A stretch of 64,000 nucleotides of DNA from a virus. Taxonomy: Duplodnaviria > Caudoviricetes. The DNA is taken from the IMG/VR virus record IMGVR_UViG_3300024269_004845. One strand, 5' to 3'. Every line of letters begins with the position of its first letter. Position 1 is the stretch's first letter. This document shows, piece after piece, positions 35,710 through 58,911 of the stretch. The position numbers and the translations under genes are program-made. The notes below the pieces were generated by a model. It ran no database searches and was not told the DNA's origin. It saw only the letters and a list, made by a program, of their open reading frames with translations.

Positions 35710-35798
35710 ATTTTTTATCCTCCTTAGTATTCTTACCATTTTTGTTTTGAGCTTAATATATTATATAATTAAGCTTCATGAATTATCTAATATAAATC

Positions 35799-35830
35799 AC
35801 AAAAACCAAGACCGAAGTCTTGGTTTTTGT
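35799..35830 (-). terminator. Terminator between AAA and vWA genes
   Basis: ACAAAAACCAAGAC/GTCTTGGTTTTTGT. Confidence 0.7.
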
Positions 35831-35839
35831 TTTCTGTGG

Positions 35840-37651
35840 TTACTTAATCATCAGGTCTACGATGCTCTTAACCGCTTCGCGGTCTTCAACATCACGAATC
35901 TTAGGAACGATGGTGCTCATGATAGCACTCTTGATATCGTTACCCAGAGCGATGTTCTGTGCAGCGTAGATGAATGCACGCTGAGAGAAGCTGCGCTCCT
36001 GAATCTCTACACCACGAACACCCTTCAGCTTCTTGTAAAGCTCGTTAAGAATCTTTACGGCCTTAGCGGGAAGAGTAGGAACTTCCTGCTTCAGGATTTC
36101 TGCGATGTTGTCAGGTGCCTCGAACTCGATTACGTGCCAACGGTCCTCAAAGGCGAGGTTCAGCATGCTGGTACCAGCATATTCTGCACCTTCGTTCATA
36201 GTGGCAGTAAAAATAACGTCGTCATTGACTTCGATATTCTTATAACCATTGATGAGGATGTTACGGCGCTTATCGAGGGCGCTGTGGAGAGAAGATGTCA
36301 CAGTAGGACGAAGAGTGTTTACCTCGTCCAGATTGATGAGAGAAGGCTTCTCGAGGGCCTTAGTAAGGATGGAGGGCTCGAACTCAATCTGTGCGGTCTG
36401 AGAACGCATAGCGTCAAACAGAACAGAATAGTCGATATCGCCACCATTTTCCTTAATGGTCTCAATCTGCTCTTCAACGGAAGCGTTAGCGAACGCTTCC
36501 TTATCAATCTTTGCATTTGCGATAGCATCGATGAAAGATGCAAACGCAGCATTTACTGCATCAGGAGAAGGACACTCCTCGCTTGGCTTCATGGACAGAT
36601 AACCGTACAGGCCTTCCTCATCCACACCTGCGGAACAGGTCTTATCGATGAGGTTCAAATCCATGAGGTTGGCAAAGGTGGTAATGAACATGTTCTTACC
36701 ACTACCAGCGGGGCCAACCAGAAGCAGGTTACCCTTGGCGTAAGAGAAGGCGATAGCATTCTCTACTTCCTTGCCATGCGGGATGTAACAAGGAGCAAAC
36801 TCCACGATGTCCTTATGTCCTTCCATCTTCTTCACGAAGAGAGCGATTGCGTATTCAGCAACGCCGACATTCTTCAGCCAGTCGATGCGCTTCTGAACTT
36901 CGGCAGCATCTGCTTCAGCAAAGGACTTCAGAAGCTTATCGTAGTCCTTAGAAGGAGCAGCGACAGCGGCAACCTCTTCCTTCACTTCAACGGTGATGGT
37001 TACAGGGAATACCAGACCATCTACGAACTTAACCTCTGCGGAAGTGTTCTTAGATACCTTCATCGCAGAAACGATATCAGCAACGTTGTCCAGCTTGATA
37101 CCCTTAGCATTTAGGGTAGTCTTTGCAGTAGAGGAAATCTCTGCGGTAGCCATACCGCAAGGAACCTCGTTGTAGTCAAAGACGATGGACTCGTCGTTTT
37201 CAATCTTGGCCACGACAGGAACGGAGCCATTCTTGCGGGAAGCGGAAGCAACCTGCATACGATTAGGGTAGTTGAGCTTATTGCCAGCCAACAGGGTCCA
37301 GTAAGTCTTGGTTACAGTTCCACTGGTAGGAGCAGCGGCTTCCTTAACAGGAATGCCCACCAGAAGAGGGTCAATAGATGTAACCTTAACCAAGTCACCT
37401 TCGGCAACCATATTGAAGACATCCTTTGCCATAGGATATCCATTTGCCGTAGAAGGACGGGCCGCAACGAAACCCACCTCATTGCCATCGGCGGTTTCGA
37501 GCTTGATTGCATAAGGGTCTTCCTTGTAAGTGTTCAAACGAACAACCAGACTATCGCTGGTAGTCAGTCCCTTTGCCATGCTCTTACTAGCGGGTCCAAC
37601 AACGCGAACCTCCTGAATTTCTACGGTATTGTTTTTCTTAGTTCTAGCCAT
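35840..37651 (-). CDS. MoxR/CbbQ/CobS-type AAA+ ATPase with N-terminal HIRAN-like domain
   Basis: GPAGSGKN, LDEVN, ATMNEG..YAG..LN.AF.DR, SQR; N-terminal EDPYAIKLETADGNEVGFV. Confidence 0.82.
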   Translation of the reverse strand: MARTKKNNTVEIQEVRVVGPASKSMAKGLTTSDSLVVRLNTYKEDPYAIKLETADGNEVGFVAARPSTANGYPMAKDVFNMVAEGDLVKVTSIDPLLVGIPVKEAAAPTSGTVTKTYWTLLAGNKLNYPNRMQVASASRKNGSVPVVAKIENDESIVFDYNEVPCGMATAEISSTAKTTLNAKGIKLDNVADIVSAMKVSKNTSAEVKFVDGLVFPVTITVEVKEEVAAVAAPSKDYDKLLKSFAEADAAEVQKRIDWLKNVGVAEYAIALFVKKMEGHKDIVEFAPCYIPHGKEVENAIAFSYAKGNLLLVGPAGSGKNMFITTFANLMDLNLIDKTCSAGVDEEGLYGYLSMKPSEECPSPDAVNAAFASFIDAIANAKIDKEAFANASVEEQIETIKENGGDIDYSVLFDAMRSQTAQIEFEPSILTKALEKPSLINLDEVNTLRPTVTSSLHSALDKRRNILINGYKNIEVNDDVIFTATMNEGAEYAGTSMLNLAFEDRWHVIEFEAPDNIAEILKQEVPTLPAKAVKILNELYKKLKGVRGVEIQERSFSQRAFIYAAQNIALGNDIKSAIMSTIVPKIRDVEDREAVKSIVDLMIK

Positions 37652-37695
37652 GTTTTTTTCCTCCCATTAAAATCTTTTGTTTTTTGGATACTAAA

Positions 37696-38976
37696 TTATA
37701 CTGTGAAAACATACTCCATATAAGCCTTTTTAACTTCTTCATCTGGAGATTTTGCATTCACTTTTGTCAGGAGCTTATTGACTCCTGTGTTGAATTGCTC
37801 GAAAGTTTTCATCCGAAGATATGGCCTGACATCGCCAAATTCGGAGATAAGGTCATCGATACCTTTTGTTTCGTCGGTATAATCCCACAGTGCATATTCA
37901 ACGGAAATTCCGTTTGCTTCGAGTTCCTGGCCGAGTTTAGCAGCCTGAGTAAGAACATTAATATTATAGCACATATCGGAGTCATACGCAACGATTACTC
38001 CCGAAAACTTAGGATACAGGGCCTTAAGACCCTTGATGGTACTCATGATTGGGCGCCAATTCGTAACGCCCTGAATACTGATTGCTGACATGCCATACTG
38101 TTTTCTGATTGCAACAGCCTTGAAAAAGCCTTCGGTAATGAACATTTTCTTGGTAAATTTACCAAGTTCAAAGCCAATTGGGCTACCAGGGCTCAAACCA
38201 TCCTGCAGATATGCGTTGTCAGGGTCATCTTTCAGACAAAAGCTGGAAGAAAACCAAACATACTTGTTGTCAGCCTTTGGGTCTCTTTTTCTGATTTGCA
38301 ATCCAACAATTTTACCCTCAAAGTCTTTACATGGGATAATAATGCCAGACTGATATCCGAATGAGAAAGGCTCTCCTTCTTTTTTGAAAAATCCAGGGAC
38401 TTCAAACAAAACGTCTGTTGTTCCGAACTTTTCGGAGACCTTAGACTCTAATTCCTTACGCAGACTCAAGAGTCTGCGAGGAAACGTTTTGAAGCCATAG
38501 GTCTGAATTTCGTCATCCGTGAACCCTCTTGTCTTCAAAAGGGCTGCATCTTCTTCGCTTAATGTAAGCATATCGAGGAAAATTCGATAAACTTCATCCA
38601 TCACTTGAAGATTTAGGACTTTCTTGACCGAAGGAATGGTCAAGATTTTACGCTCTACATCAGTGGAAATACGACCACTGAAATAGCCGAGGTTGAATTC
38701 CTTGGCTAGGCGCTTAACAGCATCGACAAAGCTTAAGCTGTACAGCTCCATGTAGAACTTTACGGGGCCACCAACGATATCCAACTTCCAATCGTGGAAA
38801 ATATTATTGGGAACGTTGATATTAAAAGACCCCAAACTGCCAGAAGGACGAAGCGGGCTTACAGTTTTAAGATTAGGGCCAACGCCACTAAAAACGCAAC
38901 CTACTCCTTCCAGGACTTCTTTTATCGGAAGTGCATTGCACTGTTCCGATAATTCTTCAAATGACTTCTTAGCCAT
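37696..38976 (-). CDS. Primase-like protein (CHC2-like domain without Zn ligands + DUF3854-type TOPRIM)
   Basis: SPLR..GSF.I.....FHDW...GG...F......SFVDAV..LA; ITEGFFKA, AYDSD, KGIDD. Confidence 0.78.
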   Translation of the reverse strand: MAKKSFEELSEQCNALPIKEVLEGVGCVFSGVGPNLKTVSPLRPSGSLGSFNINVPNNIFHDWKLDIVGGPVKFYMELYSLSFVDAVKRLAKEFNLGYFSGRISTDVERKILTIPSVKKVLNLQVMDEVYRIFLDMLTLSEEDAALLKTRGFTDDEIQTYGFKTFPRRLLSLRKELESKVSEKFGTTDVLFEVPGFFKKEGEPFSFGYQSGIIIPCKDFEGKIVGLQIRKRDPKADNKYVWFSSSFCLKDDPDNAYLQDGLSPGSPIGFELGKFTKKMFITEGFFKAVAIRKQYGMSAISIQGVTNWRPIMSTIKGLKALYPKFSGVIVAYDSDMCYNINVLTQAAKLGQELEANGISVEYALWDYTDETKGIDDLISEFGDVRPYLRMKTFEQFNTGVNKLLTKVNAKSPDEEVKKAYMEYVFTV

Positions 38977-43836: not shown

Positions 43837-44766
43837 TTAAAATTCCAAACTTCCTAGTGCTGTAATCATTGTAGGGATAGCGATAACGGCCATGTTACAA
43901 AGTAGCATAGGCATCTGAATCATTGTCGCCAATGTTTTTCTACCGCTAATTTTAATTAGGAACTGGTCCTTTTGCATTTGTGCAACTTTATCTGCTTGAG
44001 CAGCGAATGCGTCTTTTGCATCGCCACCTTGTTCCATTGTTAATTTAACAAGAGATACGAATTCTCTAACTTCGAACATATTTACCGTATTAGACATAAC
44101 GTCAAGAGCAGCAGTAGTTCCTTTTGTATTACAGTCAAGAATAAATTGATTAATTACAGGTTTCCAGTCGTCAGAAACATATCTAACACTATTTTCCATG
44201 GCTCTTACCAAGTCCATACCTGCAACAAGGTAACCAGAAATAATTCTTACTAAGTCTGGGAAATACTTAAATAAAGCTTCGTTTTTACCTTTAACTTCTG
44301 CTTTAAACATGTAGTCTAACAAGAAAGAACATCCCGCAAAAACAACAGCTCCTGCAGCAATCATATATCCACCCATGGTAGCTAATAATAGTCCTAATAT
44401 CACACCAATAATTCTTAGAATTAAATTAGTTGCGATATAAGATTCTGCTGTAAAAGTATCATCCCAAGCAATAAATTTAATATCTTTATCTAATTGTTCT
44501 ACATTTTCAATTCTTAAACTAGGTAATAGTTTTTGTAACTTAGGGAATAAGTCACTTCTAATACTTGCAGTTAAATCATTAATAGTGTCAACTGTTGCGG
44601 CTGAGTCTTTTTTAACGCCTTTACTGAATTGTTTTAGACGACTCTTAGTTACTGAGCTGTCTAATGTAGTACCAATTAAATCAATAAATGTTTTTGCTGC
44701 GGACAAAATCAGAATTAACATACCAGCAATAAAGATAATATTGGCAACTGTCATATTTATTTCCAT
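43837..44766 (-). CDS. tadC: TadC-like pilus assembly membrane protein (T2SS-F domain)
   Basis: FPDLVRIISGYLVAGMDL..AM...GG....F..QA; paired with tadB. Confidence 0.78.
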   Translation of the reverse strand: MEINMTVANIIFIAGMLILILSAAKTFIDLIGTTLDSSVTKSRLKQFSKGVKKDSAATVDTINDLTASIRSDLFPKLQKLLPSLRIENVEQLDKDIKFIAWDDTFTAESYIATNLILRIIGVILGLLLATMGGYMIAAGAVVFAGCSFLLDYMFKAEVKGKNEALFKYFPDLVRIISGYLVAGMDLVRAMENSVRYVSDDWKPVINQFILDCNTKGTTAALDVMSNTVNMFEVREFVSLVKLTMEQGGDAKDAFAAQADKVAQMQKDQFLIKISGRKTLATMIQMPMLLCNMAVIAIPTMITALGSLEF

Positions 44767-44782: not shown

Positions 44783-45727
44783 TTACTTTAGTGGGGCACC
44801 GATTTTATTATTAATAAACCAAATGACGCCCATAATAATTCCAAACAACGCAGCAACCATTATTTGGCCAGTTAGTTGGTTTAATAAGAAATCAGAATAA
44901 CCATCCATTGATATAAATCCAAAACAAGCGAATAGAGGAACAGTTAAAACAAGGATATAAGAGTCCTTAACGGGTTCTGAAATTTCTCTTTTTAGCATCT
45001 GTCTAAGCTGTCTATCTTCTTCGTACTGTAAATATGCTTGGCCCAATAGATTTTCTCTAGCTTCTTGGGTACCAATTGCAGAAGAAATTTTATAGAAGTC
45101 TGAAAAACGTTCCAAAAATTTGTTGTCGCATCTTTCTGCCAAATTATCCAATGCTTTTTCAACAGTTACGTTAGCTTCCATTTCTGCACAGGTGAGTTTT
45201 AATTCGGTATACATTGGTTCCATACCTTTGAACTCATTCTTTGTCATATTCATTGCTTTAGAAAAGTCTTTGGTGCTAAGATATCTTTTAATTACCATCT
45301 GCATCATTGGGCCTATTTGTTTTTCAAGTTCTCCAACTCTTTTATTTCTTAAAAATGTAATTACTTGGGACGGTATCATAGGTCCAACAAGAATCATTTC
45401 TACTGCCAAAAAAGGATTTCCAATTACAACAAATGTAAATATACACAATACAATGGCGCAAATGACCTTTAGTAAAAACAATTCATGATATTTTAGATTT
45501 AAGCCTGCCTGACGGCACATCTTTTCAACGGCATTTCTTTTTGAATATTTTGTTTTTTCTGCAGCAGTCTTTTCTAATTTTTTCATAAAAGACTCGGACT
45601 CGTTGCCCATGTCTCTAGCTTGGCTTTTTCTAAAATTTTCAGAAAAGTCTGTCTTGCTAAAAGTATTAAAAATAGTTAAGGCTATGAATATTAACACATA
45701 TATCATAGGACTTATTGGTTGACTCAT
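44783..45727 (-). CDS. tadB: TadB-like pilus assembly membrane protein
   Basis: T2SS-F pattern (ALDNLAER; FL.....GQIM). Confidence 0.78.
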   Translation of the reverse strand: MSQPISPMIYVLIFIALTIFNTFSKTDFSENFRKSQARDMGNESESFMKKLEKTAAEKTKYSKRNAVEKMCRQAGLNLKYHELFLLKVICAIVLCIFTFVVIGNPFLAVEMILVGPMIPSQVITFLRNKRVGELEKQIGPMMQMVIKRYLSTKDFSKAMNMTKNEFKGMEPMYTELKLTCAEMEANVTVEKALDNLAERCDNKFLERFSDFYKISSAIGTQEARENLLGQAYLQYEEDRQLRQMLKREISEPVKDSYILVLTVPLFACFGFISMDGYSDFLLNQLTGQIMVAALFGIIMGVIWFINNKIGAPLK

Positions 45728-45963: not shown

Positions 45964-47235
45964 GTGGCTAAAAGAGTTGAAAAAGTAATGAATGAATATA
46001 GCGATAGAGATTTTCAAGCATTGTTGTCTATATATAATTTTAGATGTTTGTCCATGAATCAATTGTTTGATTTACATTATAGATTTTCTGGGAAAAAGGA
46101 AGTGACTTCTGAGTATTTAAGAAAAAAGATTATTAAAATGAAGAAGGATAATCTAATTGAAGAATCTAGGCTTGTAAGTAAGAAGGCTCCTGTTGTCTAT
46201 TTTTTAACAAATGACGGAATCCAAGCCGTTCGCATGTATTTTAATTTGTCTAATAATATATATGATACTAAGAAGAGAATTCATGAAAGAGGATATTATA
46301 CTTATTCTGAAATAAAAGTGGCAGATAGATTTATTCCACATCAATATAACTTGAATCAATTTGCTTTGACTTCTATTGATTACTTAAAAAGTAAAGATAT
46401 TGGATACTCATATGTTGATGAAAGACATGTTTCTCAAACATATGGAATTCGACCAGATGGGATTTTATCGACTTTGGGGTTAGATATATTTTTAGAAATG
46501 GATATGGGAACCGAATCATTGTCTCAGTTGAAAGAAAAATGGAATCATTATAGGAGTTATTTAGGGTCTCAAAGCTATATAGATAATGGGAAAAAGATTA
46601 TTATATTTTTCATTTGTTATAATAAAGGCAATATTACGGAAAGAATTAAAGTCATAAAAAATTCATTAAATGAGCATTTTATAGATTGTTTAAAAGAAGT
46701 TGAAGTGTATGTGGGATTACCAGAAAAATTAATGTCGGTATTAAAAAACATAATTGTTCCTTTTTACACGACTGGCAAAAGTGAAATGTATGAAGAATTA
46801 ATTACCAATATTAAACGACATGAATTTAAAGTTGCTTCTGGTATTCAAATGGCAAAATATTTAGACAATACAAATTATACATTTTATATTAAAAATGAAG
46901 ATGGGAAAGATTTTTTAGTTCATGAATTTTTTGGAGAACCTATCGGTGCTATGAACAGAGTCGTTTTCCATGAAAAAATTAATAATTTATTTGAGAAAAA
47001 ATTTAATAAATCTTTGCCATTACTTTTGATTGGAACAAACGAAGATACAATAATTGAAAATATAGATTTATTTGTTGTTTCTGATATCCCAAATGTATAT
47101 TTTTCTACATTAAAAAGGTTGAATACTATGCCTTTTAATGAAGCATTATTTAAAATAATGCCAGATGGTAGTATTTATTCATTCACTGAAGACTTTCAAA
47201 ATATAAAACAAACGGAGAAAATAAATAAAAAATAA
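45964..47235 (+). CDS. Replication-relaxation (Replic_Relax) family protein
   Basis: RDFQALLSIYNFRCLSMNQL, VYFLTNDG, PHQY, IRPDG, FLEMDMGTES..QL.EK...Y. Confidence 0.82.
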   Translation: MAKRVEKVMNEYSDRDFQALLSIYNFRCLSMNQLFDLHYRFSGKKEVTSEYLRKKIIKMKKDNLIEESRLVSKKAPVVYFLTNDGIQAVRMYFNLSNNIYDTKKRIHERGYYTYSEIKVADRFIPHQYNLNQFALTSIDYLKSKDIGYSYVDERHVSQTYGIRPDGILSTLGLDIFLEMDMGTESLSQLKEKWNHYRSYLGSQSYIDNGKKIIIFFICYNKGNITERIKVIKNSLNEHFIDCLKEVEVYVGLPEKLMSVLKNIIVPFYTTGKSEMYEELITNIKRHEFKVASGIQMAKYLDNTNYTFYIKNEDGKDFLVHEFFGEPIGAMNRVVFHEKINNLFEKKFNKSLPLLLIGTNEDTIIENIDLFVVSDIPNVYFSTLKRLNTMPFNEALFKIMPDGSIYSFTEDFQNIKQTEKINKK

Positions 47236-47305
47236 TTTATATTGTCGGGGTTCATCCCGACAATATTTTTTGTTACCAAAAAATCTTTGTAATGCTTGAA
47301 ATTGC

Positions 47306-47334
47306 TTGACTTTGTATTAATAATGTGATATTTT
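47306..47334 (+). promoter_or_regulatory. Promoter of secY-secE
   Basis: TTGACT-17-TATTTT with TG; follows terminator 47239-47266. Confidence 0.5.
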
Positions 47335-47417
47335 GTATATGTAACAGTAATGACATTCTTGCTATTATAAGCGGGAATGTTTATTTATTAAGTTAGTGTT
47401 TAGAGAGGAGTTTATTT

Positions 47418-48761
47418 ATGTTTAGTAGTACTAATGTAAAAATGTTAAACAAAAACAAATATAAGACAACCGAAAAAACATTGGCTCAAAAGATATTTTT
47501 TACGTCAATGATTTTAGTAATTCTTCAATTTTTATCTCAAATTCCTATTTGGGGGATAAACCGAGATTTAATTAGTTTTTGGTTAAATAGCGACATGAGT
47601 GGTATTTTTGGAATATTTAATATTTTTTCTGGTATGTCGTTTGAGAATCTTTCATTCTTTGCTTTAGGTATTGCGCCATATATTAGCGCATCAATTATTT
47701 TGCAATTATTGAGAGTTGCAATTACTCCTTTGGACCAGATGTGTAAAGACGCACAAAATGAAAAGAAGTTTGTAGAAAAAATTACTTATGGGTTTGCAAT
47801 TATTATTGGTATTTTACAAGTGATTCCTTTGGTGATGAATTTTTCGACTAGCGGTTTATTGGTTAATAACAGTTTTTCTTGTAAGCTTTTAGTTGGTGCT
47901 TCCATCTTATTCGGTAGTGCGATAATGATTGCTTTAGGCAAGATAATTGAAAATAAGGGGATTGGTAATGGTATTTCATTAATATTGTTAATGAATATCT
48001 TGTCATCTATGCGTGGTGACTTCATAAATATTTATAATACTTTTATTTACAATAACGAAATTACAACTATTATTTTAACTGTTTTGATTGCTGTACTGGT
48101 CCTGACATTTTCTTTTGTTTCCGTTATTTATCTGTGTGAAGGGAAGAAAGATATAAAGGTTACTTTTTCTGGTAAAATGCATGGCGGGAAAATGGTTAAA
48201 TCTGCAGATAATATTATTCCCCTAAAGGTTAATATGTCTGGTGTTATGCCAGTTATTTTCGCATCTACATTAATTCAATTGATTCCTATGATTACTGCCA
48301 TACTAAATGTTTCTGAAACTAGTATCTTGAACGAAATTTCAAAATATTTTAATCAAATATATTGGTTTGATTTTTCGAATATCCAATATACTTTTGGTAT
48401 CTTAATTTATTTTGTATTGATTGTCTTTTTTTCTTATTTTTATAATATGATATCTTTCAGTTCAAAAGATATCGCTGACAATCTTAACAAGCAAGGTGGA
48501 ACAATTGCAGGTATTAGGCCAGGTAAATCAACTAAAGAGTATTTAGATGGGCAAATTAAGTATATGGTATTATTAGGTTCGTTAATGTTAATTATTATTT
48601 CTATTATTCCAATGATTATTGGTGGAGTAATCAACATTAACTTAGCTTTTGGGGGAACATCTATTATTATTGTAGTAAGCGTATTAATTGAAACTTATAA
48701 AACAATTAAATTGGAAAAACAGAGAGAAACTGTTGCTCCTAGAAGATATAGCGTATTTTAA
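47418..48761 (+). CDS. secY: Preprotein translocase SecY (divergent, stand-alone)
   Basis: About 10 TMs; ALGIAPYISASIILQLL, GIGNGISL, IPLKVNMSGVMPVIFA, GIRPG, GGTSIIIVV. Confidence 0.93.
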   Translation: MFSSTNVKMLNKNKYKTTEKTLAQKIFFTSMILVILQFLSQIPIWGINRDLISFWLNSDMSGIFGIFNIFSGMSFENLSFFALGIAPYISASIILQLLRVAITPLDQMCKDAQNEKKFVEKITYGFAIIIGILQVIPLVMNFSTSGLLVNNSFSCKLLVGASILFGSAIMIALGKIIENKGIGNGISLILLMNILSSMRGDFINIYNTFIYNNEITTIILTVLIAVLVLTFSFVSVIYLCEGKKDIKVTFSGKMHGGKMVKSADNIIPLKVNMSGVMPVIFASTLIQLIPMITAILNVSETSILNEISKYFNQIYWFDFSNIQYTFGILIYFVLIVFFSYFYNMISFSSKDIADNLNKQGGTIAGIRPGKSTKEYLDGQIKYMVLLGSLMLIIISIIPMIIGGVININLAFGGTSIIIVVSVLIETYKTIKLEKQRETVAPRRYSVF

Positions 48762-48774
48762 GGGGGAAAACAAT

Positions 48775-48936
48775 ATGTTTAAGAAATTAAAAAATGAAAT
48801 TAACAGAATTAAATGGCCTGACAAATGGTTACTTGCTGAAGATTTAAAAGTTGTCTGTATTGGAGTGATTGGTTTAATACTTGCAATATCTATTATTGAT
48901 TGGCTTTCTAAGTTAACGCTTGGATTAATATTTTAA
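48775..48936 (+). CDS. secE: Preprotein translocase SecE
   Basis: 53 aa; EINRIKWP motif then single TM ending IDW; RBS; terminator at 48945-48975. Confidence 0.8.
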   Translation: MFKKLKNEINRIKWPDKWLLAEDLKVVCIGVIGLILAISIIDWLSKLTLGLIF

Positions 48937-49118
48937 AACTAGTGTAATGGCTCGAGATTATTTCTCGAGCCATTATTATTTGTTTTTCTTTAGACATTTT
49001 GTCAAACAATTCTTCTATTTAATTATATCTCATATAACATTATAATGAAATTATGAAATAATTTTTTATATGATTTTTTTACAAAAAATAATAAATAACA
49101 AGGAGATGCAAAAATAAT

Positions 49119-49886
49119 ATGAAAAAGATTCTTTCGACTGTTTTATGCTTGGTTATGATATTAAGTCTAGGCGTTACTGCGTTTGCAGAAACAAATGAAT
49201 TTGTTCTTACTTATAGCAATGAAGCCAGCTATGAGATTTCTATACCTGAAAGTGGGAACATAGATGTTACTAATGGTAAAGGTACTATTACCATTGGAGT
49301 AACAGAAACTAATTTAGCAGATGGAACTGTTGTTAGTGTTACTGCTACTTCTGCCAATTATACTGATGATTCTTGGTATTTAGTTAATACTAAAGATAGT
49401 AGTGACAAGATGGCTTATACTGTTGGTACTACTGATGGTGGTAGTGATGTAGCAAGTGGTGATGAAGTTTTATCTGCTGATAGTGCTACCTCTACTACTC
49501 TTTATGTAACACTAAGTGATACAAGCAAGATTGGTACTTTTACAGATACTATTACTTTTACTAGTGAGATTGAAGCGGCTATGGTTACTGTGATAGTCAA
49601 TGAAATCGATACTAGCTATGCGGAGCTTTATGTAAAAGGTGATGACAATATGTTATACGGGGGCACTTATCAGTTCCCAGTTGGAACAATTTTAGAGTGT
49701 TGGATAAGTGACTGGAGTGATGATAGTGATTATGATGGTATCGTTATAAATGGAAGCTGGATAATGGGTGCTGGACATAATAGTAGCATAACTTATGACT
49801 ATATCCTTACTAAAAATGTAACAATTGATGTGGGGGCTGATGTGCTTGGTTATGAAGAAGGTCGTATTGAGATAACTGAACAATAA
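49119..49886 (+). CDS. Secreted Thr/Ser/Asp-rich beta protein
   Basis: Signal peptide ending AFA; GTFTDTITFT (WxL/pilin-like end strand). Confidence 0.7.
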   Translation: MKKILSTVLCLVMILSLGVTAFAETNEFVLTYSNEASYEISIPESGNIDVTNGKGTITIGVTETNLADGTVVSVTATSANYTDDSWYLVNTKDSSDKMAYTVGTTDGGSDVASGDEVLSADSATSTTLYVTLSDTSKIGTFTDTITFTSEIEAAMVTVIVNEIDTSYAELYVKGDDNMLYGGTYQFPVGTILECWISDWSDDSDYDGIVINGSWIMGAGHNSSITYDYILTKNVTIDVGADVLGYEEGRIEITEQ

Positions 49887-50664: not shown

Positions 50665-51717
50665 TTATTCGACGTTGAAGAGGTCTTCTTCATTTCCTGG
50701 TTCATCTTCGTCAACAACAGGGGTACCAGGTTCCACATTGACACAGCGAAGCTGGTCTTCAATTTTCTTAAAGATGTCTGGATTTGTCTTTAAGAAATCA
50801 TATACGGAATTTCTTCCTTGTCCAATTCTTTCTCCATCATAAGAGAACCAGGAACCAGATTTAACTATAAGATTTTTTTCTACTGCAAAATCGATAAGAC
50901 TTAGGATTCTATCAAATCCTTCGCCAAAGCGAACTTCTACAATAGTTTCCTTAAACGGAGGAGCTACCTTATTTTTAACAACTTTGATTTTGGTCTTGGC
51001 TCCAACAACTTCGGAACCTTCTTTGGTTGCTTCAGCTTTTCTAACTTCTACTCTGATAGACGAGTAGAATTTTAATGCGCGTCCACCAGTGGTTACTTCG
51101 GGATTGCCATACATGACTCCAACCTTTTCTCGAAGCTGGTTAATGAAGATTACTGTACAATCCATATTGGAAGCGATTGCTGTTAGCTTACGCATCGCTT
51201 TCGACATTAATCTTGCATGCAGTCCAACAAAGTTGTCTTCCATTTCTCCTTCGATTTCAGCCTTTGGAACAAGAGCTGCTACAGAGTCGATAACGACTAA
51301 ATCAACAGCTCCAGAAGAAATTAAATCACAAGCAATTTCAATTGCCTGTTCTCCATTGTCAGGCTGAGAGATAATCATATCATCAATATTTACTCCCAAC
51401 TTTGCAGAATATACAGGGTCTAAAGCATGTTCTGCATCAATAAATGCAACCATTCCATCATGGTCTCTTTGGATTGCTGCTACGGCCTGTAATGCAAGGG
51501 TTGTTTTACCCGAAGACTCTGGGCCGTAAATTTCAACAATTCTACCTCTTGGCAAGCCTCCGCCAAGAATATTGTCAATGGCAACAAGGCCTGTTGAAAA
51601 TTTCTTGACATCGCTAATACCGCTATCGCTCATAAACATAGCAGCGCCTTTGCCAAACTTCTTGTCAATTTCGTTGAGCTTTTTCTTTAAAAGCTCTCGT
51701 TTTTCCGCACTTGGCAT
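50665..51717 (-). CDS. recA: Recombinase RecA
   Basis: GPESSGKTT, FIDAEHALDP, IDSVAALVPKAEIEGEM, INQLREKVGVMYGNPEVTTGGRALKFY. Confidence 0.97.
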   Translation of the reverse strand: MPSAEKRELLKKKLNEIDKKFGKGAAMFMSDSGISDVKKFSTGLVAIDNILGGGLPRGRIVEIYGPESSGKTTLALQAVAAIQRDHDGMVAFIDAEHALDPVYSAKLGVNIDDMIISQPDNGEQAIEIACDLISSGAVDLVVIDSVAALVPKAEIEGEMEDNFVGLHARLMSKAMRKLTAIASNMDCTVIFINQLREKVGVMYGNPEVTTGGRALKFYSSIRVEVRKAEATKEGSEVVGAKTKIKVVKNKVAPPFKETIVEVRFGEGFDRILSLIDFAVEKNLIVKSGSWFSYDGERIGQGRNSVYDFLKTNPDIFKKIEDQLRCVNVEPGTPVVDEDEPGNEEDLFNVE

Positions 51718-53564: not shown

Positions 53565-54950
53565 ATGGCTATTTGGATTAAGAAAGGATATTCCACGTTG
53601 GCTAGATACAATAGTCTTTCTTATATTTTCAACAATCCATCAGATGTAAATATCGATGAAGATGAAAATTTGGGGCTTTGGACTACGAAGTACGTTGGCA
53701 ACGAGTTATTCCTTTACAAATTGGATTTTACACGAAATGAAAAGGTTATCTTCTTCAAAGAAGTTGAACCTCGACTAATCGCAAGTTTTAACGATGATGG
53801 TGAATATACCACTGGCGATGGGCTCACCTTCATGCATGCAGTCTACAATAATATTGTAGATATTAACCCTATTGTGAATTTCCTGCGAGATTCCATGATT
53901 AAGAACGAATGTCTGTATAAACTCTTTTTCTTTGATGAGAACTTTGCTGATAGAGTCAATAGAAGTCGTAGAAATGCGGAATACAACGTGTCCATGAATG
54001 TTTTTGAGAATATCTTAAACAATGGGCTTATTTCTCTGGAAAAAGTGTTCACTGGTTGTTCGCTAGCTTTTTTTGTAGATAATATCTGCAAGGGAGATAT
54101 GGGTCTTCAGAATGACAAAAAGAAGTTGAGACAGGTGTTAGGATTGCCTTCGGCAGTCATCGATTTCCTGAAAGACAGTTCTTATTCTTCTCTTTATGGC
54201 AAATTTAAGGAACTTGCAGAAACAAAGGATGTCAATGATACCGTGTTCTTGGTCGAATATATGGCCTTGTTACGCCAAGTTGAGGTGCAGACCAGTCTAA
54301 TCAGTAATGGTGCTAGAAATTCTTTCGTTGAGAGCGTCATTGATATCGCACTTATGGTTAAGTCCAGTATGAAGGTAATTATCAATTATTTGCATACTCA
54401 GCAGTTTTATTACAACGAAATTGGTATGGGCATTATGATGCCTTATTCTGAAGCTATTGCGATGAGAGATTATCTTGCCATTGCCAAAAAGCATGGGCTT
54501 GAGGTTGACCCTCTACCGTCGAATCTTCGTGCAGCACACTTTTACATTCAGAATAACGTTTGCTATGCAGATGACGAAGCAAAGAATGAAGAGTTTAAGA
54601 AAGCTGTTGCGAAATATAGGAATTTGGAATATAAGGGAAAAACTTATTCAGTCGTTGTTCCTGATTCGATTGGCGCGATGATTGATGAGGGTATGCAAAT
54701 GCACCATTGTATCGCAAATTATGTTGACCTTGTTTGTACTGGTACAATCGTTCTGTTCTTGAGAAAAACCGAAAATCTTAAGGAATCTTTTGTGTCTTTT
54801 GAGGTTTCTGAGGATGGAGAATTCGTTCAGATTAAGGGAAAATATGATGCTGATATCGTTGAAACAGAAGAGGAGTCTGAGAACAACGAAGTTCTTAAGT
54901 TCCTAACAAAATGGAGGGAAAAGAAATATGAAGAAGTATATGGCAGCTGA
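53565..54950 (+). CDS. PcfJ-domain protein, copy 1
   Basis: C-terminal P.NL..AH...EGMQMHHCIANY...VLFLRK....ESFVSFE...QIKG. Confidence 0.82.
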   Translation: MAIWIKKGYSTLARYNSLSYIFNNPSDVNIDEDENLGLWTTKYVGNELFLYKLDFTRNEKVIFFKEVEPRLIASFNDDGEYTTGDGLTFMHAVYNNIVDINPIVNFLRDSMIKNECLYKLFFFDENFADRVNRSRRNAEYNVSMNVFENILNNGLISLEKVFTGCSLAFFVDNICKGDMGLQNDKKKLRQVLGLPSAVIDFLKDSSYSSLYGKFKELAETKDVNDTVFLVEYMALLRQVEVQTSLISNGARNSFVESVIDIALMVKSSMKVIINYLHTQQFYYNEIGMGIMMPYSEAIAMRDYLAIAKKHGLEVDPLPSNLRAAHFYIQNNVCYADDEAKNEEFKKAVAKYRNLEYKGKTYSVVVPDSIGAMIDEGMQMHHCIANYVDLVCTGTIVLFLRKTENLKESFVSFEVSEDGEFVQIKGKYDADIVETEEESENNEVLKFLTKWREKKYEEVYGS

Positions 54951-56073
54951 GGGTATTGAACTTCTTAAGGAGTTTAATATTTCTCATATTGAAACTACGA
55001 TTAATTATCGTTGCGACCGTATTATTTGTGCCGATTGCAATACAGTTTCGGATGCAGAAAATCCTTGTTCGTGTAAGAGAGAAGACAAAAAAAAGCGAGT
55101 TTACCATTCAATGGAAACTGGCGAAAATATCTTGGTTAAAGATTCTGGTCGTCTCTTCATCAGAGAGGAAGACGGCGCAAAGATTTTGTTCTATTACGAG
55201 CTCATTGGTTCCATCATCAAAGAGACTGGCGCTATAAAATTTTTTAAGAGACCAATCGAATTTATGTCAGTAAAAGACAACTCATTTACTTTTACTATGA
55301 CATATGGGGTTAACGAAATCGCTATTTCGGATGTGCTTAACATTTTGGAAGCCAATAATGTTCAGTGTGACAGGCTTATGAAGATATTAAAGCTTTGTAA
55401 AGTTTGTAACTATCATAACTGGGCCTCCTTAAATAAGTATGTTTCGATGATTGATGTTCGGGGGCACAAGCTCTTCGAAGATGAGAAATTTGTAGAATCT
55501 CATACTGCATTGATTAGACATGTAATCAATCGTAGTTATGGTAATGGTAAAATCGATTCTGTAAACGGTATTTGTGAATACTTTGAAATTCCTGAATGTT
55601 TAGTCGATTACACCAAAGACCCGTATTTCTCGAAGATTGATGGGTATTCGGATATTAGACTTTTGGATTCACATCCCATAGAAATTCAGGGGTGCTTCGC
55701 ATATTACATTGGTTCTGGCAAATTCACAAGAAGAACTATCAAGACTTACCTGGATACTTTTGATGTTTCGTTCTGGGATTCTAGAAACAAAATCAATTAT
55801 TTCCTGACGTATGTCAAGAAGAACTTGTGGATGGGTGACGCAGTTTTTGGAAAGGCTGTACAAACTTTTAAATATGTTGAGGAAAAGAAGTTTCCCACAA
55901 ATGAAGATACTATCAACTCTAAGTTCTGTTTCGGGATGAAGAATGTTGATATGTTTGCAGAGCGGTTTGGAACGGCTGAAGCAGATGAATTCCATCAGAT
56001 TCGAGAATCTCAAGGAATCGTTCCTGCGTTGAAGCAGTTACTCGTTTGGACAAACAAAAATGAAGGCGTATAA
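54928..56073 (+). CDS. Zn-ribbon partner protein, copy 1
   Basis: N-terminal CADC...CSC; overlaps the upstream stop. Confidence 0.7.
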   Translation: MKKYMAAEGIELLKEFNISHIETTINYRCDRIICADCNTVSDAENPCSCKREDKKKRVYHSMETGENILVKDSGRLFIREEDGAKILFYYELIGSIIKETGAIKFFKRPIEFMSVKDNSFTFTMTYGVNEIAISDVLNILEANNVQCDRLMKILKLCKVCNYHNWASLNKYVSMIDVRGHKLFEDEKFVESHTALIRHVINRSYGNGKIDSVNGICEYFEIPECLVDYTKDPYFSKIDGYSDIRLLDSHPIEIQGCFAYYIGSGKFTRRTIKTYLDTFDVSFWDSRNKINYFLTYVKKNLWMGDAVFGKAVQTFKYVEEKKFPTNEDTINSKFCFGMKNVDMFAERFGTAEADEFHQIRESQGIVPALKQLLVWTNKNEGV

Positions 56074-56091
56074 ACGCCTTCATTTTTGTTT
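56052..56091 (+). terminator. Terminator closing cassette 1
   Basis: AAACAAAAATGAAGGCGT/ACGCCTTCATTTTTGTTT. Confidence 0.8.
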
Positions 56092-56102
56092 TCTATTTCT
56101 TC

Positions 56103-56143
56103 TTATTTTTCATTCTAAATATTTATATAATAATATAAGCACA
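56103..56143 (+). promoter_or_regulatory. Class II promoter motif, cassette 2
   Basis: TTATT-18-TATAATAATATAAGCACA. Confidence 0.65.
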
Positions 56144-56175
56144 TATAAACAAATTAACAAGGGAGGAAAATTAAA

Positions 56176-57609
56176 ATGGCTATTGTATTTACGTGCAAAA
56201 ATGGTAGACGATTTTACCAGTTGGTGAACATGAACGGGTATGGTTACGACCCTTATGGTTATCACACGAAAGAAATTAAGGAGGTCGATAATCCTCTTCC
56301 TTACGAGGAAGACATTTTGGCCTTCAATGGTACTGGTTATGGTGCCGAACTGGCGCTCGGTAAGTTCCGAATCGAAGAAGAAAAGTCTCCTTTTATGGAG
56401 AATCCTTACATCAAGATGTATGAAGACTTCCTGTCTTGTAAGAAAATTAGCTACGATGTAGCTTCCGACACTATCACTATCGACCCTGAGGTCGCAGAGA
56501 AAGTGTTTGCTTACGAGACCTTCCGCAACAATCCTGCTTGGTTTGAAAGGGCAACCAATTTCGTGTATTACATTGTAATGCATCGAAATCCTTACGTTTA
56601 TTGTCTTTTCTCTGAATTTACTCAGAAGAGTAAGAGATTTGCCAATAATTGTTCCAGCACGGAAAAGTTTTATACTGTTATCAATCTTTGGAAGAACATT
56701 GATGCGCTGAACAACTTTGAAAAGATTGTTAAGAGTATTGGTGAAGATTTCGTCTTTGATAACATCGGAAGAGCGGACTTTACCCTGAATAACGCCAAGA
56801 AGCTTCACCAGGTTGTGGAGATGCCTATGGTTGTTGCGCAGGGAATTCAGAAGCTCGGTGTGGAGGAAACTTTCTCCGATATCAAGACTATCACTGCTAT
56901 CGACAAGAACTATGCCGTAACGCTCATTGATTTCATCTTTGATTTCAAGAAGGCATTTCCTGGTAAGGATTTCTGTTGTAAGGCAGACGTCAGCGTATTC
57001 ATTAAGAACATCGCCAATCTGATGAGTACTGGAATTTACAACGAGAACTTCAATGATTTGCTTGGTTTCTTGGTCAATGAAAGTCTGAATTTCTCCAGAT
57101 TTAAGCTTCCCGTAAGCGAGTCTGGCGAACTGTTTGACTATCTCAAGATTGCTCAGCAGATGAAGGAAGCCAATGATGGCGTTAAGTTCGACCGATTCCC
57201 GAAAAACATCCAGAAGGCACACAATATTGTGATGCAGAACAGTACTATCATTTCTAAGCCTAGACCCGAAGAGTTTGCTGCTGCTGTTGCAAAACAGGCA
57301 TTCCTGAACGACGAGAAGGATGATGAATATGTATTCATGGTTCCTCGCAGTGAAATGGACCTCATGAACGAGGGTAATGCTCTGCACCACTGCGTAGCAA
57401 GCTATCGAGACCGAATTATTGATATGGGTACTAAGGTTGTATTCATGCGTAAGAAAGACGATGTGGAGACTCCTTTCGTTACCATCGAATATGAGGACGG
57501 GCTCGCCGTACAGATTAGAGAAATGTACAATGTGGATGTCACCGACACTGCAGTACTTGCCGCCGTTGATAGATGGCTGGCTCGTGCAGAACGTAGAGAG
57601 AAGAAATAA
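56176..57609 (+). CDS. PcfJ-domain protein, copy 2
   Basis: FPKNIQKAHN...EGNALHHCVASY...VVFMRK....TPFVTIE. Confidence 0.85.
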   Translation: MAIVFTCKNGRRFYQLVNMNGYGYDPYGYHTKEIKEVDNPLPYEEDILAFNGTGYGAELALGKFRIEEEKSPFMENPYIKMYEDFLSCKKISYDVASDTITIDPEVAEKVFAYETFRNNPAWFERATNFVYYIVMHRNPYVYCLFSEFTQKSKRFANNCSSTEKFYTVINLWKNIDALNNFEKIVKSIGEDFVFDNIGRADFTLNNAKKLHQVVEMPMVVAQGIQKLGVEETFSDIKTITAIDKNYAVTLIDFIFDFKKAFPGKDFCCKADVSVFIKNIANLMSTGIYNENFNDLLGFLVNESLNFSRFKLPVSESGELFDYLKIAQQMKEANDGVKFDRFPKNIQKAHNIVMQNSTIISKPRPEEFAAAVAKQAFLNDEKDDEYVFMVPRSEMDLMNEGNALHHCVASYRDRIIDMGTKVVFMRKKDDVETPFVTIEYEDGLAVQIREMYNVDVTDTAVLAAVDRWLARAERREKK

Positions 57610-57623
57610 GGAGGATAAAAAAT

Positions 57624-58793
57624 ATGGCAATCAGAAAGTATACGAAATGGATTGATAAGTGTGGTGCGAATCCTAAGGGAATTCGTATTACGCCTAACGC
57701 AAGCGCTTTTGTACGAACCGTTTGTTCCTGTGGGTTTGCTGATGCGGCGCAGGTTTACGAGTGCCCCAATTGTGGCAATACGGAATTCGTAGTTTGCGAT
57801 TCTTATGAAACCACCTATAAGAAGTTCCCTATCGAGGTGGTTGTTTCCAAGGGGGATGTATCCGTAATCCAGCGAGTTCAGAACATTTGGCTTCGTCAGG
57901 AAATCGAGATTGAAGAATCTCCTCAGAAGCTATTTACCTATGATGGGAAGAATGTTAACTTCCCTAGATGGAATAATCACGATGAGGTTTTTACTGCTCT
58001 GAGAGAAAACAAGAGTAAGCTTCCTGCTGAAATTGTTGAGGCTCTGGACACAATGGAAGATTTGGGCCACGGCAACAACTATCGGACTTTTGGCAAGTTG
58101 CTGGAAGAGCATCCCAAGACTGATATGTTTATCAGGATGGAAAAGGATGCCCATCCTGCCTTTACCAAGGCTCTAATCGACATGGTCTTCGGCTCTTATT
58201 CTAACTATCCTGATATGGATTTCGTATCTATGGAAGGATTTTTTAGAGAATATGCCGTTCCTGAAGAGTTTAAGGAGTTCGCTGATAAGTGTCCTTCCGA
58301 AATTCTTGACCGAACCATCAATGTTCGTCACAGAAGCTGGAGAGCATCTCCTAATGCAAAGTTTGAGAAACCTACTAATTGGGGCCTTGTTCCCGAAGAA
58401 ATCAAAGGTGTTTGTAAGTATTATGTCGAGAATGGCGTAATTTCTTTCCGCACTTATGCGTCTCTGGGGACCATTGAGCCTCAAATGCTCAAGAAAAAGG
58501 CGATTCTCAACTTGTATTTTAAGAAATATATGATGCAGTTTAAGGACCGTATCGTAAGTGCAGTAAATGCAACCTATCAGTATTTGACTGAAAACAATAT
58601 CCCTATCACCGAAACAACTTTCGATGAGAAGTGGTGTCGTCAGAAGCAGAATATTGATATGCTTTATTCGAATCTGGCTCGCTCTCAGTCAGACATCGAT
58701 GCATTCATCAACTACTGCGATACCGATGCAGTGAACGCCATTAAGAATCTCGCTAATGCGAAGAGGACTAAGAAGGCAAAAGCTGCTGAATAA
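57624..58793 (+). CDS. Zn-ribbon partner protein, copy 2
   Basis: CSCG...CPNCGN. Confidence 0.75.
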   Translation: MAIRKYTKWIDKCGANPKGIRITPNASAFVRTVCSCGFADAAQVYECPNCGNTEFVVCDSYETTYKKFPIEVVVSKGDVSVIQRVQNIWLRQEIEIEESPQKLFTYDGKNVNFPRWNNHDEVFTALRENKSKLPAEIVEALDTMEDLGHGNNYRTFGKLLEEHPKTDMFIRMEKDAHPAFTKALIDMVFGSYSNYPDMDFVSMEGFFREYAVPEEFKEFADKCPSEILDRTINVRHRSWRASPNAKFEKPTNWGLVPEEIKGVCKYYVENGVISFRTYASLGTIEPQMLKKKAILNLYFKKYMMQFKDRIVSAVNATYQYLTENNIPITETTFDEKWCRQKQNIDMLYSNLARSQSDIDAFINYCDTDAVNAIKNLANAKRTKKAKAAE

Positions 58794-58794
58794 A

Positions 58795-58830
58795 CTAAAA
58801 GACCCCTATCGAAAGATAGGGGTCTTTTAG
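58795..58830 (+). terminator. Terminator closing cassette 2
   Basis: CTAAAAGACCCCTATC-GAAA-GATAGGGGTCTTTTAG. Confidence 0.85.
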
Positions 58831-58839
58831 TTTTTGCTT

Positions 58840-58880
58840 TTATTTTTCTGAGTTCAACTTTGTATAATAATATTAGCACA
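58840..58880 (+). promoter_or_regulatory. Class II promoter motif, cassette 3
   Basis: TTATT-18-TATAATAATATTAGCACA. Confidence 0.62.
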
Positions 58881-58911
58881 ACAAAAGAAAATCAAATGGG
58901 AGGAAAAATTT

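Follow-up and report, generated by a model that had tools for sequence, protein, structure and literature searches.

Few cellular genes are as conserved and as vertically inherited as those for SecY and SecE, and secY serves as a phylogenetic marker. The locus described here raises the question why a mobile element should carry both genes, and which proteins the encoded channel would serve. The window (the whole stretch of DNA analysed, 64 kb in length) had been interpreted from its letters alone as containing a stand-alone secY-secE operon on a mobile element, with the role of a private translocon. From the analyses presented below, we consider it reasonably probable that the pair encodes a private SecYE core channel which would be driven by host SecA and would export the element's own proteins.

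The operon and its signals comprise the following features:

47239-47266, plus strand: intrinsic terminator closing the upstream Replic_Relax gene; a 12-bp stem precedes TTTTTT
47306-47334, plus strand: promoter-like site, -35 box TTGACT, 17-nt spacer, TG-extended -10 box TATTTT
47352-47381, plus strand: 5'-leader hairpin followed by a T-rich run, a terminator-like match in the scan
47418-48761, plus strand: secY, ORF of 447 aa for a SecY of canonical type; RBS GAGAGGAG at 47403-47410
48775-48936, plus strand: secE, 53 aa, single-TM SecE; RBS AGGGGGA inside the 13-nt intergenic gap
48944-48976, plus strand: bidirectional intrinsic terminator at the operon end, 14-bp stem (6 GC pairs) and T-run

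The stop codon of secY (TAA, 48759-48761) and the start codon of secE (ATG at 48775) leave a gap of exactly 13 nt, and coordinates as well as family models agree with the earlier statement that a full-length secY is followed by secE 13 bp further on. The terminator at 47239-47266 isolates the unit on its 5' side. At the same place a hairpin with a T-run is found in two relatives, L107 (SecY 93% identical) and L106 (79%), the stem sequence being different. Six terminator-like sites were observed in the region, compared to 0.8 expected from shuffles. The promoter consensus scan alone was not above chance, with 29 sites found and 25.2 expected; the TTGAC and TGTG-ATAT promoter blocks are kept in L107 and L106, where the surrounding bases diverge. 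The leader hairpin (predicted RNA fold of -18.2 kcal/mol, z -2.06) has a stem which is invariant or compensated in both relatives. It is possible that it acts as an attenuator or as an mRNA-stabilising stem; no Rfam family was matched in the window or in the secY leader. A promoter and a terminator of its own, as claimed by the sequence-only reading, are present, and with promoter boxes and leader hairpin conserved, secYE is predicted to be a separate transcription unit.

In comparison with the housekeeping SecYEG of Firmicutes, both proteins belong to the same families above the equivalog cut-offs. SecY reached 251.6 bits against PF00344 (cut-off 32.2) and passes TIGR00967, the NCBI equivalog model of canonical SecY, with 304.5 bits (cut-off 253.6). 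It is full-length with 10 TM helices and can be aligned to solved SecY, its residues 22-432 matching residues 14-418 of Geobacillus SecY (8y9y, 5eul) with E 1.7e-63 and no large gaps. SecE was detected by PF00584 (31.8 bits, cut-off 22.7) and by TIGR00964 (29.6 bits, cut-off 27.55); it is short, as in Firmicutes, and carries a K-W-P-D-K motif followed by a hydrophobic helix, its one C-terminal TM helix. The pore ring of E. coli SecY, which we take to be I82, I86, I187, I191, I278 and I408, and the C5-loop arginine R357 were confirmed as I and R in the E. coli sequence. The window SecY has I85, I89, I186, L190, I280 and I418 in the ring, and R367 at the position of R357. This pattern is that of 23 Lachnospiraceae SecYs and is near-invariant across 30 SecYs from elements. 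The C4-loop arginine (E. coli R255) behaves differently: it is present in 22 of the 23 Lachnospiraceae SecYs and replaced in all 30 element SecYs.

Both genes are intact and under purifying selection, with dN/dS values of 0.04-0.11 for secY and 0.03-0.16 for secE in comparisons to the relatives whose SecY is 93% and 79% identical. The GC3 of secY (0.25) and secE (0.20) matches that of the element backbone (0.20-0.31), compared to 0.33-0.49 for chromosomal secY, and the pair has not been captured recently. A complex prediction for SecY and SecE gave 'weak support' (score 0.52, best control 0.00), a pass which may mirror likeness only, since SecYE is a solved complex. Of 80 solved complexes, 58 attained this mark, as did 2 of 110 mismatched pairs; scores of 0.60 or less were obtained for only 7 of the 80 solved complexes. 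The partner had a pLDDT of 72 or more, and 96% or more of the contacts were shared between runs.

The relatives of the window SecY form 30 clusters with 43-93% identity, located on metagenome contigs of up to 652 kb. In all clade relatives examined (L001-L004, L106-L108 and a 137-kb contig), as in the window, secE follows directly 3' of secY, and the pairing is kept even where every other neighbour changes. For comparison, 80 chromosomal Lachnospiraceae loci were inspected, each showing 2-11 of 11 spc/alpha-operon genes, a number limited mainly by contig ends. All 80 have spc-operon genes beside secY and none has secE within 10 kb, whereas no spc-operon genes lie beside secY in the window or at L001-L004. 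The earlier description of chromosomal secY as part of the spc operon and apart from secE holds for these loci, and the element operon stands alone, outside both the spc and the nusG context. While housekeeping genes are arranged as rplO-secY-adk with secE beside nusG, the element genes are adjacent in a transcription unit of their own on a mobile carrier.

A phylogeny against host-type SecY, built from canonical and element SecYs only, unites the 30 element SecYs in one clade (UFBoot 99, SH-aLRT 97). Its sister group is formed by the 23 chromosomal Lachnospiraceae SecYs (100/97), and both together exclude C. difficile, Vescimonas, Bacilli and E. coli. Measured from their shared node, mean path lengths are 1.39 in the element clade and 0.54 in the chromosomal clade, corresponding to an approximately 2.6 times faster evolution, and the sister placement could partly be a long-branch effect. 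Replacement of the C4 arginine together with the faster rate could indicate that the protein uses its partners differently and is more than an additional copy. A profile scan of 185,579 GTDB species representatives revealed no clade member among the 599 matches listed. The best 80 of these are all chromosomal secY genes with 35-41% identity, the nearest chromosomal SecYs among the matches listed. Profile scans located relatives on 21 'viral' contigs of IMG/VR, 12-325 kb in length; with the single SecY protein as query, neither GTDB nor IMG/VR delivered anything. Records of PLSDB were considered as a precedent for plasmid-borne secY and rejected: tblastn hit 96 records with a best identity of 36-37%, and those of Agathobacter, C. 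difficile, Vescimonas, B. thuringiensis and Listeria, the five inspected, are pieces of chromosomes with rplO-secY-adk. SecY matches in phage collections, with at most 37% identity, are host fragments or unannotated records.

The nature of the carrier can be seen from the genes surrounding the operon:

6335-8296, minus strand: element-borne FtsH paralogue with AAA, AAA_lid_3 and Peptidase_M41 domains
43840-44766 and 44786-45727, minus strand: TadB/C-like proteins with 4-5 TM helices each; T2SSF matches below cut-off (E 0.013 and 0.0059)
45964-47235, plus strand: Replic_Relax (replication-relaxation) protein, a plasmid/ICE marker (PF13814, 68.5 bits); upstream neighbour of secY
49119-49886, plus strand: secreted protein of 255 aa with a signal-peptide-like N-terminus of the classical type; downstream neighbour of secE

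The sequence-only reading had named a Replic_Relax neighbour, an FtsH and nearby tadBC genes. The former two were recovered by the family models; of tadBC, two genes are present, and their assignment is weakened by T2SSF matches below the cut-off. Replic_Relax is syntenic with secYE in L106, L107, L115-118 and the 137-kb contig, and the 465-kb relative L004 likewise has an FtsH gene, approximately 8.5 kb away from secYE. The downstream secreted protein is identical to that of L115 up to about residue 155 and unrelated beyond, and has therefore a polymorphic C-terminal half. Several assemblies break inside this gene. Furthermore, the window encodes three PcfJ proteins, two prepilin peptidases, a sigma factor, RecA, RadA and RuvC. 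A contig with identical window proteins in the same order carries, about 0.8 kb beyond the window end, a gene for a VirD4-type coupling protein of 640 aa (T4SS-DNA_transf, TrwB_AAD_bind and TraG-D_C in precomputed Pfam data), and also a candidate ATPase with DUF87 and a faint AAA_10 match. The window showed no MOB relaxase of canonical type. None of 11 spc/alpha-operon genes and no rRNA or tRNA was found in the 64 kb, no ribosomal-protein genes lie up to 47 kb upstream or 15 kb downstream of secY, and about half of the window ORFs have no Pfam family. Pfam phage families are missing from the window as well, and ten large unknown proteins gave no PHROG match, which refers to 64 kb of an element larger than 200 kb. 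The GC content is 0.347 for the window and 0.286 for secY. Megablast of 14 kb around the operon gave no match in PLSDB or INPHARED. The earlier assignment to a mobile element is borne out by Replic_Relax, the three PcfJ genes and VirD4 past the window end: the carrier is a giant (>200 kb), low-GC, conjugative plasmid-like element, and its hosts are probably Lachnospirales-like Firmicutes of animal guts.

For the function of the operon we propose that SecY and SecE would form the SecYE core of a protein-conducting channel of canonical type. Since neither secA, secG nor yidC was found in the window or in the flanks of the relatives, this channel would have to rely on SecA and SRP of the host, which would drive it. 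The element would thereby gain its own translocon supply, with Tad-type pilins, lipoproteins and the adjoining polymorphic secreted protein as presumable cargo, and export of element proteins would be less tied to the level or type of host SecY. In E. coli, SecY without SecE is degraded by FtsH. Because of this, a secE directly following secY may hold the subunits in balance; this would account for the constant adjacency of the two genes on elements, which chromosomes never show. By analogy, a quality control of uncomplexed SecY is possible for the element FtsH. By a crude heuristic, 21 of the 62 ORFs in the window count as exported or multi-TM proteins, a share which does not clearly exceed what a normal genome has and does not by itself point to a special secretory burden.

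Further secY genes outside the spc context were detected on large IMG/VR contigs of 36-325 kb. In L007 and L008 the arrangement is secY-secE too, and their SecYs are the sister of the window clade; the record of L007 encodes a signal peptidase I, and Peptidase_S26 is seen in a record of this sister lineage (G002). Other layouts are secY-secG-secE (L016, L017), secY with a 60-aa TM protein and secA (L011-L015), and secY-secG with sortase-like genes (L019-L025). The SecYs of these layouts group with Bacilli, Peptostreptococcales and Oscillospiraceae, and the distribution over different Bacillota lineages implies several independent captures. Five SecY-bearing IMG/VR records were searched for marker genes: VirD4 was found in two, and Terminase_6N above the cut-off in none.

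A published parallel is given by the 'Hodor' conjugative megaplasmids of the human gut, which carry a co-transcribed hyp-secY-secG-secE operon with trigger factor and sortase B nearby, and for which the own giant surface proteins were proposed as cargo (Yuan et al., bioRxiv February 2026, PMC12934698). Hodors comprise two groups, with membership requiring 90% or more nucleotide identity to a G1 or G2 genome, and were reported only from human gut and wastewater (PMC12934698). Megaplasmids of this type are missing from plasmid databases and routinely misfiled in viral ones (PMC12934698). The carrier described here shares with them the nature of a giant conjugative plasmid-like Bacillota gut element, the co-oriented Sec genes outside the ribosomal operon, the absence from plasmid databases with a tendency to viral misfiling, and the proposed role in exporting the element's own surface proteins. 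In contrast, the window has no secG between secY and secE, no giant surface protein, and no Pfam match for trigger factor or sortase. Its GC content of 0.35 (secY 0.29) differs from the 44.6-47.1% reported for Hodors (PMC12934698), and in this comparison of described properties it speaks against membership in either group. The window lineage probably differs from Hodor in origin, as judged from a tree without Hodor sequences. L016 was considered as a stand-in for Hodor and dropped; on a long branch, its SecY joins one from Oscillospiraceae, and neither sortase nor trigger factor is found up to 10 kb away. Also considered as carriers were the Inocles, giant elements of the oral cavity, for which the main text of the report does not mention SecY (PMC12340149), and the pMMCAT megaplasmids, which were set aside as Bacteroidales elements. 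For the private translocon claimed by the sequence-only reading, the Hodor operon is thus a precedent; the element's many membrane, pilus and lipoproteins, which that reading named as its clients, are putative cargo.

Several other explanations were weighed against this reading. The channel could be dedicated to one or a few element proteins instead of providing general capacity, in the manner of the accessory Sec systems of streptococci, staphylococci and lactobacilli (SecA2/SecY2 with Asp1-3 and glycosyltransferases). A second SecY outside the ribosomal operon and possibly the service to particular cargo are traits in common with these systems. Such a specialisation would fit the secreted protein with its swappable C-terminal half directly 3' of the operon, the fast evolution of the clade with loss of the conserved C4-loop arginine, the other element modules that pair secY with secA or sortase-like genes, and the specific giant cargo proposed by the Hodor authors (PMC12934698). 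However, the window SecY remains far below the cut-offs of both SecY2 models (101.3 bits against TIGR02920, cut-off 249.6; 105.8 bits against NF009082, cut-off 353) while passing the canonical one, and 10 further element SecYs are likewise below. Neither secA nor asp genes came to light in the window when 59 ORFs were scanned with Pfam and SecA and SecG queries were run by phmmer/hmmsearch; the best hit with the SecG query had E 0.12, so that no SecG-like ORF is present, and yidC and signal peptidase are missing from the 64 kb as well. As secA2, asp and gtf are absent from the window and also from the relatives' flanks, and no serine-rich repeat cargo is found at the locus, the sequence-only reading was right in separating the operon from SecY2 systems. 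The window operon moreover has its own SecE, which to our knowledge aSec loci lack. Finally, neither the 137-kb relative nor L108 has the secreted gene in this downstream position, which leaves the pair without a constantly associated cargo gene. We regard a cargo-specific channel as unlikely.

Still somewhat less credible to us is a replacement or protective channel, which would sustain export while toxins, phages or the element itself block, degrade or target the host SecY, or which would aid the element in a new host after conjugation. The sigma factor, FtsH, RecA, RadA and RuvC of the element suggest a general independence from the host, and the fast divergence of the clade with a conserved pore would be compatible. 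Against this, no window gene was recognised as an inhibitor of host SecY, we know of no SecY-targeting toxin in Firmicutes, and the findings fit simple added capacity equally well. That the carrier is a huge phage or phage-plasmid, with secYE as an auxiliary gene during infection, appears very unlikely. The 21 'viral' IMG/VR contigs, clade contigs of up to 652 kb, homing-endonuclease-like genes and many unknown ORFs could be read in this sense, but the ten large unknown proteins from the 64 kb have no PHROG match, Terminase_6N above the cut-off occurs in none of the five records searched and VirD4 in two, the element itself has VirD4, Replic_Relax and PcfJ, and such megaplasmids are known to be misfiled in viral databases (PMC12934698). 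The least probable explanation, and one we consider highly improbable, is the housekeeping secY of a cellular chromosome, either of a small-genome bacterium or in a chromosomal island, with a relocated secE. SecY does pass the canonical equivalog model, and ftsH, recA, radA, ruvC and the sigma factor nearby are genes of housekeeping type. Yet the ribosomal-protein genes which accompany secY in all 80 chromosomes are missing from the 64 kb around this one, as are rRNA and tRNA genes, a Pfam family is lacking for about half of the ORFs, genes for conjugation occur, and GTDB delivered no clade member among the matches listed.

A private SecYE channel serving the element's own proteins is therefore the reading we retain. 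Element-borne Sec genes as such are not unprecedented, having been described in a preprint for two groups of human-gut plasmids (PMC12934698). The window clade is probably an independent lineage of this newly recognised kind, and together with four other module layouts it suggests a much broader phenomenon with several origins. As a wider and rather doubtful idea, giant elements of Bacillota may repeatedly have captured an export channel (secYE, secYGE, secY-secA, secY-secG-sortase), and the window lineage may have become an orthogonal translocon preferring element cargo, which with the element's own sigma factor, FtsH and recombination genes would form part of a semi-autonomous 'second cell programme'. 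The fast divergence, the lost arginine of the ribosome-contacting C4 loop and an obligate partner SecE would be the marks of such a translocon.

The presence of a selected and always paired secYE on mobile elements shows that even the core export channel can turn into an accessory, horizontally mobile trait. For metagenomics, this means that a secY in a bin or on a 'viral' contig need not indicate a chromosome. A second SecYE beside that of the host may also be regarded as a natural experiment on subunit balance, sharing of SecA and choice of cargo.

Our analysis shows that the window SecYE is a selected pair of canonical type with transcription signals of its own. The features around it are:

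47239-47266, terminator-like hairpin
47306, promoter-like site, -35 TTGACT with an extended -10 (consensus match, alone not significant)
47352-47381, + strand, terminator-like leader hairpin followed by a T-run, between the secY promoter and the ribosome binding site
47418-48761, + strand, secY, 447 aa (ORF list and sequence)
48775-48936, + strand, secE, 53 aa (ORF list and sequence)
48944-48976, terminator-like hairpin
49119-49886, + strand, secreted protein of 255 aa directly after secE, C-terminal half polymorphic
50665-51717, - strand, recA, intact in the window

The location and description of secY-secE in the sequence-only reading are borne out by the ORF list, the sequence and the Pfam and NCBIfam scores. 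SecY reaches 251.6 bits with the Pfam model and 304.5 bits with the canonical SecY equivalog of NCBIfam (cut-off 253.6), while the two SecY2 models, with cut-offs of 250 and 353, give no more than 101 and 106 bits. For SecE the values are 31.8 bits (Pfam) and 29.6 bits (NCBIfam equivalog, cut-off 27.55). The 13-nt gap between the genes includes AGGGGGA, and GAGAGGAG is located 7 nt upstream of the secY start. Six terminator-like sites were counted in the operon region versus 0.8 expected from shuffles. The promoter-like site is kept amid diverging surrounding bases in two relatives with SecYs 93% and 79% identical to that of the window; in both, the leader hairpin is also kept and its stem changes are compensated. 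This hairpin may serve for attenuation or as a 5′ stem that stabilises the transcript, and no family was matched in an Rfam search of the secY leader. Concerning the proposed tadBC neighbours, two membrane proteins are indeed present, but the T2SSF matches of both are below the cut-off.

Residues 22-432 of the window SecY align with the solved Geobacillus SecY (E 1.7e-63). The pore ring and loop arginines of E. coli SecY, at positions which we take to be the functional ones (residues confirmed as Ile/Arg in the E. coli sequence), were transferred via an alignment containing this protein. The pore ring (I85, I89, I186, L190, I280, I418) and the C5-loop arginine (R367) follow the pattern common to 23 Lachnospiraceae SecYs and are near-invariant across the element clade. 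The C4-loop arginine (E. coli R255) is present in 22 of the 23 chromosomal Lachnospiraceae SecYs and replaced in all 30 element SecYs, by G, N or other residues (window residue 257, about 48186-48188); the replacement may alter a ribosome or partner contact. Compared with the same two relatives, secY has a dN/dS of 0.04-0.11 and secE one of 0.03-0.16, ratios which are approximate because dS is high (0.8-3.2, saturating for some pairs); pN is far under pS. The predicted SecY-SecE complex scored 0.52 (best control 0.00; graded as weak support), with partner pLDDT of at least 72 and contacts agreeing between runs in at least 96%, and since SecYE is already a solved complex this shows likeness, not binding. 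Of 80 solved complexes, 58 reach the mark for such predictions, as do 2 of 110 mismatched pairs; only 7 of the 80 score 0.60 or less.

The ribosomal and adk/infA genes flanking secY in a complete Mediterraneibacter chromosome were run against all fetched loci. Such spc-type genes occur at all 80 chromosomal Lachnospiraceae loci (GTDB representatives; best 80 of 599 matches listed), and none was found in the window, on four giant metagenome contigs or at 20 of 21 IMG/VR loci, which supports placing the window secY outside a chromosomal ribosomal operon. A SecE ORF directly 3′ of secY was seen at non-chromosomal loci only (0 of the 80 best-listed chromosomal loci). Replic_Relax, which adjoins secY, three PcfJ proteins and two prepilin peptidases (all Pfam) represent plasmid/pilus markers. 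The window also encodes MazE and a VWA/AAA_5/primase module, besides housekeeping-type genes for RecA, RadA, RuvC, RecD2, a sigma-70 factor and FtsH. No Pfam family matches about half of its ORFs, no tRNA or rRNA was found in it, and a PHROG search with ten large unknown proteins gave no match. A contig with identical proteins in the same order runs beyond the window end, where three genes were called within about 64840-73100:

VirD4-type coupling protein, 640 aa (three T4CP Pfam families)
DUF87/AAA_10 ATPase, 596 aa
SbcCD-like protein, 809 aa

The exact window SecY is found on at least 23 contigs of up to 208 kb from JGI, ENA and Logan assemblies. The carrier of secYE is probably a conjugative giant element.

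Among 5.8 billion proteins, the identity of SecY relatives falls gradually from 93% to about 43%, and chromosomal Lachnospiraceae SecYs follow at 35-41%. One 137-kb contig is syntenic with the window across 20 kb. On contigs of 652, 306 and 126 kb, secY is near RecD-like helicase, Toprim, AAA_23 and homing-endonuclease-like genes; on one of 465 kb it lies near ClpP, a sigma factor and FtsH, and other family members lie on smaller contigs with differing neighbours. Whatever these neighbours, secE directly follows secY on every family contig examined. In a careful maximum likelihood tree (61 canonical and element sequences, LG+G4, E. coli root; Hodor SecY, described below, not included), the 30 element SecYs form a single clade (UFBoot 99, SH-aLRT 97), which two IMG/VR secY-secE loci join (99/97). 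Together they are separate from, and sister to, 23 chromosomal Lachnospiraceae SecYs (100/97), and the whole group is set apart from C. difficile, Vescimonas, Listeria, B. thuringiensis and E. coli. Measured from the shared node, element SecYs have a mean path length of 1.39 and chromosomal SecYs one of 0.54. In our reading of this tree and of the GC3 values given below, the capture is old and came from a Lachnospirales-like lineage, and the genes have since been resident on elements for a long time, evolving fast; a long-branch effect possibly contributes to the sister position.

Only one relevant paper emerged from the literature searched on SecY in plasmids, mobile elements and huge or jumbo phages: Yuan et al. 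(bioRxiv, February 2026; PMC12934698) describe conjugative megaplasmids from the human gut under the name 'Hodor'. These plasmids of 211-389 kb and 44.6-47.1% GC came to light among 'huge phage' genomes; their co-transcribed hyp-secY-secG-secE genes lie beside trigger factor and a class B sortase and were proposed to export two giant surface proteins (PMC12934698). In contrast, the window has no secG (best SecG-like match E 0.12), neither sortase nor trigger factor was found in it, and its GC content is 0.35. The window secYE represents a new layout within a kind that the 2026 preprint was the first to report, so it is not categorically new, and its lineage is probably independent of Hodor's. 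PLSDB and INPHARED contain no SecY relative above 37% identity. In PLSDB, the secY genes of the five 'plasmids' opened were rejected as precedents: these records (NZ_CP143948.1, NZ_CP149721.1, NZ_AP023416.1, NZ_CP151873.1 and NZ_LR134400.1; 59-861 kb) carry complete rplO-secY-adk and are chromosome fragments or chromids.

A profile scan of IMG/VR turned up 20 contigs (12-325 kb) whose SecY gene lies outside the spc context. Their layouts are:

L007, L008: secY-secE (the 290-kb record of L007 also encodes signal peptidase I)
L016, L017: secY-secG-secE
L011-L015 (e.g. L012:9971-13572; contigs 120-222 kb): three consecutive genes, for SecY, a 60-aa TM protein and a 723-aa SecA
L019-L025 (e.g. L021:10004-12213; contigs 125-325 kb): secY-secG, then genes with sortase-like N-termini
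L005, L006, L010: secY alone

The secY-SecA modules lie outside any ribosomal operon, and their SecY is under the cut-off of both SecY models (TIGR00967 222.9 bits). The contigs with sortase-like genes (GC 0.30-0.36, one with direct terminal repeats) carry a SecY grouping with Bacilli and may have relatives among the giant elements of oral streptococci. All IMG/VR-module SecYs scored (10 element SecYs besides that of the window) missed the SecY2 cut-offs. In a quick tree they fall with several Bacillota lineages (Bacilli, C. difficile and Vescimonas), some on long branches, and this scattered placement suggests several independent captures. Terminase_6N was above its cut-off in none of five SecY-bearing records searched and VirD4 was present in two (L012's record carries VirD4-like genes), in line with the Hodor authors' remark that plasmids of this kind get misfiled as viruses (PMC12934698).

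With regard to base composition, GC3 of secY (0.25) and secE (0.20) equals that of the element backbone (0.20-0.31) and is lower than in chromosomal secY (0.33-0.49). Values of 0.39-0.54 were observed at 16291-17238, 33487-38976 and 53565-60261, comprising the sigma-70 gene, the VWA/AAA_5/primase module and PcfJ cassettes; unlike the backbone-matching secYE, these genes look like later acquisitions. A 208-kb JGI contig (L115:2702-3344) is 99.9% identical to the window as far as the secreted-protein gene after secE. Here, about 155 residues are identical and the remainder is completely different, and at least six independent assemblies end inside this gene. Separately, in the relative with 79% SecY identity (L106:8529-9951) and on the 137-kb contig, recA is interrupted near window position 51080 by about 368 bp of inserted sequence, which leaves two ORFs; Rfam intron models did not match the insertion (E up to 0.01).

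SecYE alone is a minimal channel that requires SecA, or SRP with the ribosome. Because none of these partners was found in the window, they would have to be supplied by the host. In E. coli, FtsH degrades SecY without SecE, so that tight secY-secE coupling would secure the subunit balance of a second copy, and the element's own FtsH might take part in SecY quality control. By a crude count, 21 of 62 window ORFs encode signal-peptide, lipoprotein-like or multi-TM proteins; the Tad-type pilins would be candidate cargo, as would the polymorphic secreted protein (49119-49886). The sequence-only reading of a private translocon with membrane quality control is plausible and partly supported. The finding is of real interest because the window clade and the other IMG/VR layouts extend the Hodor report of 2026 to a recurrent phenomenon.
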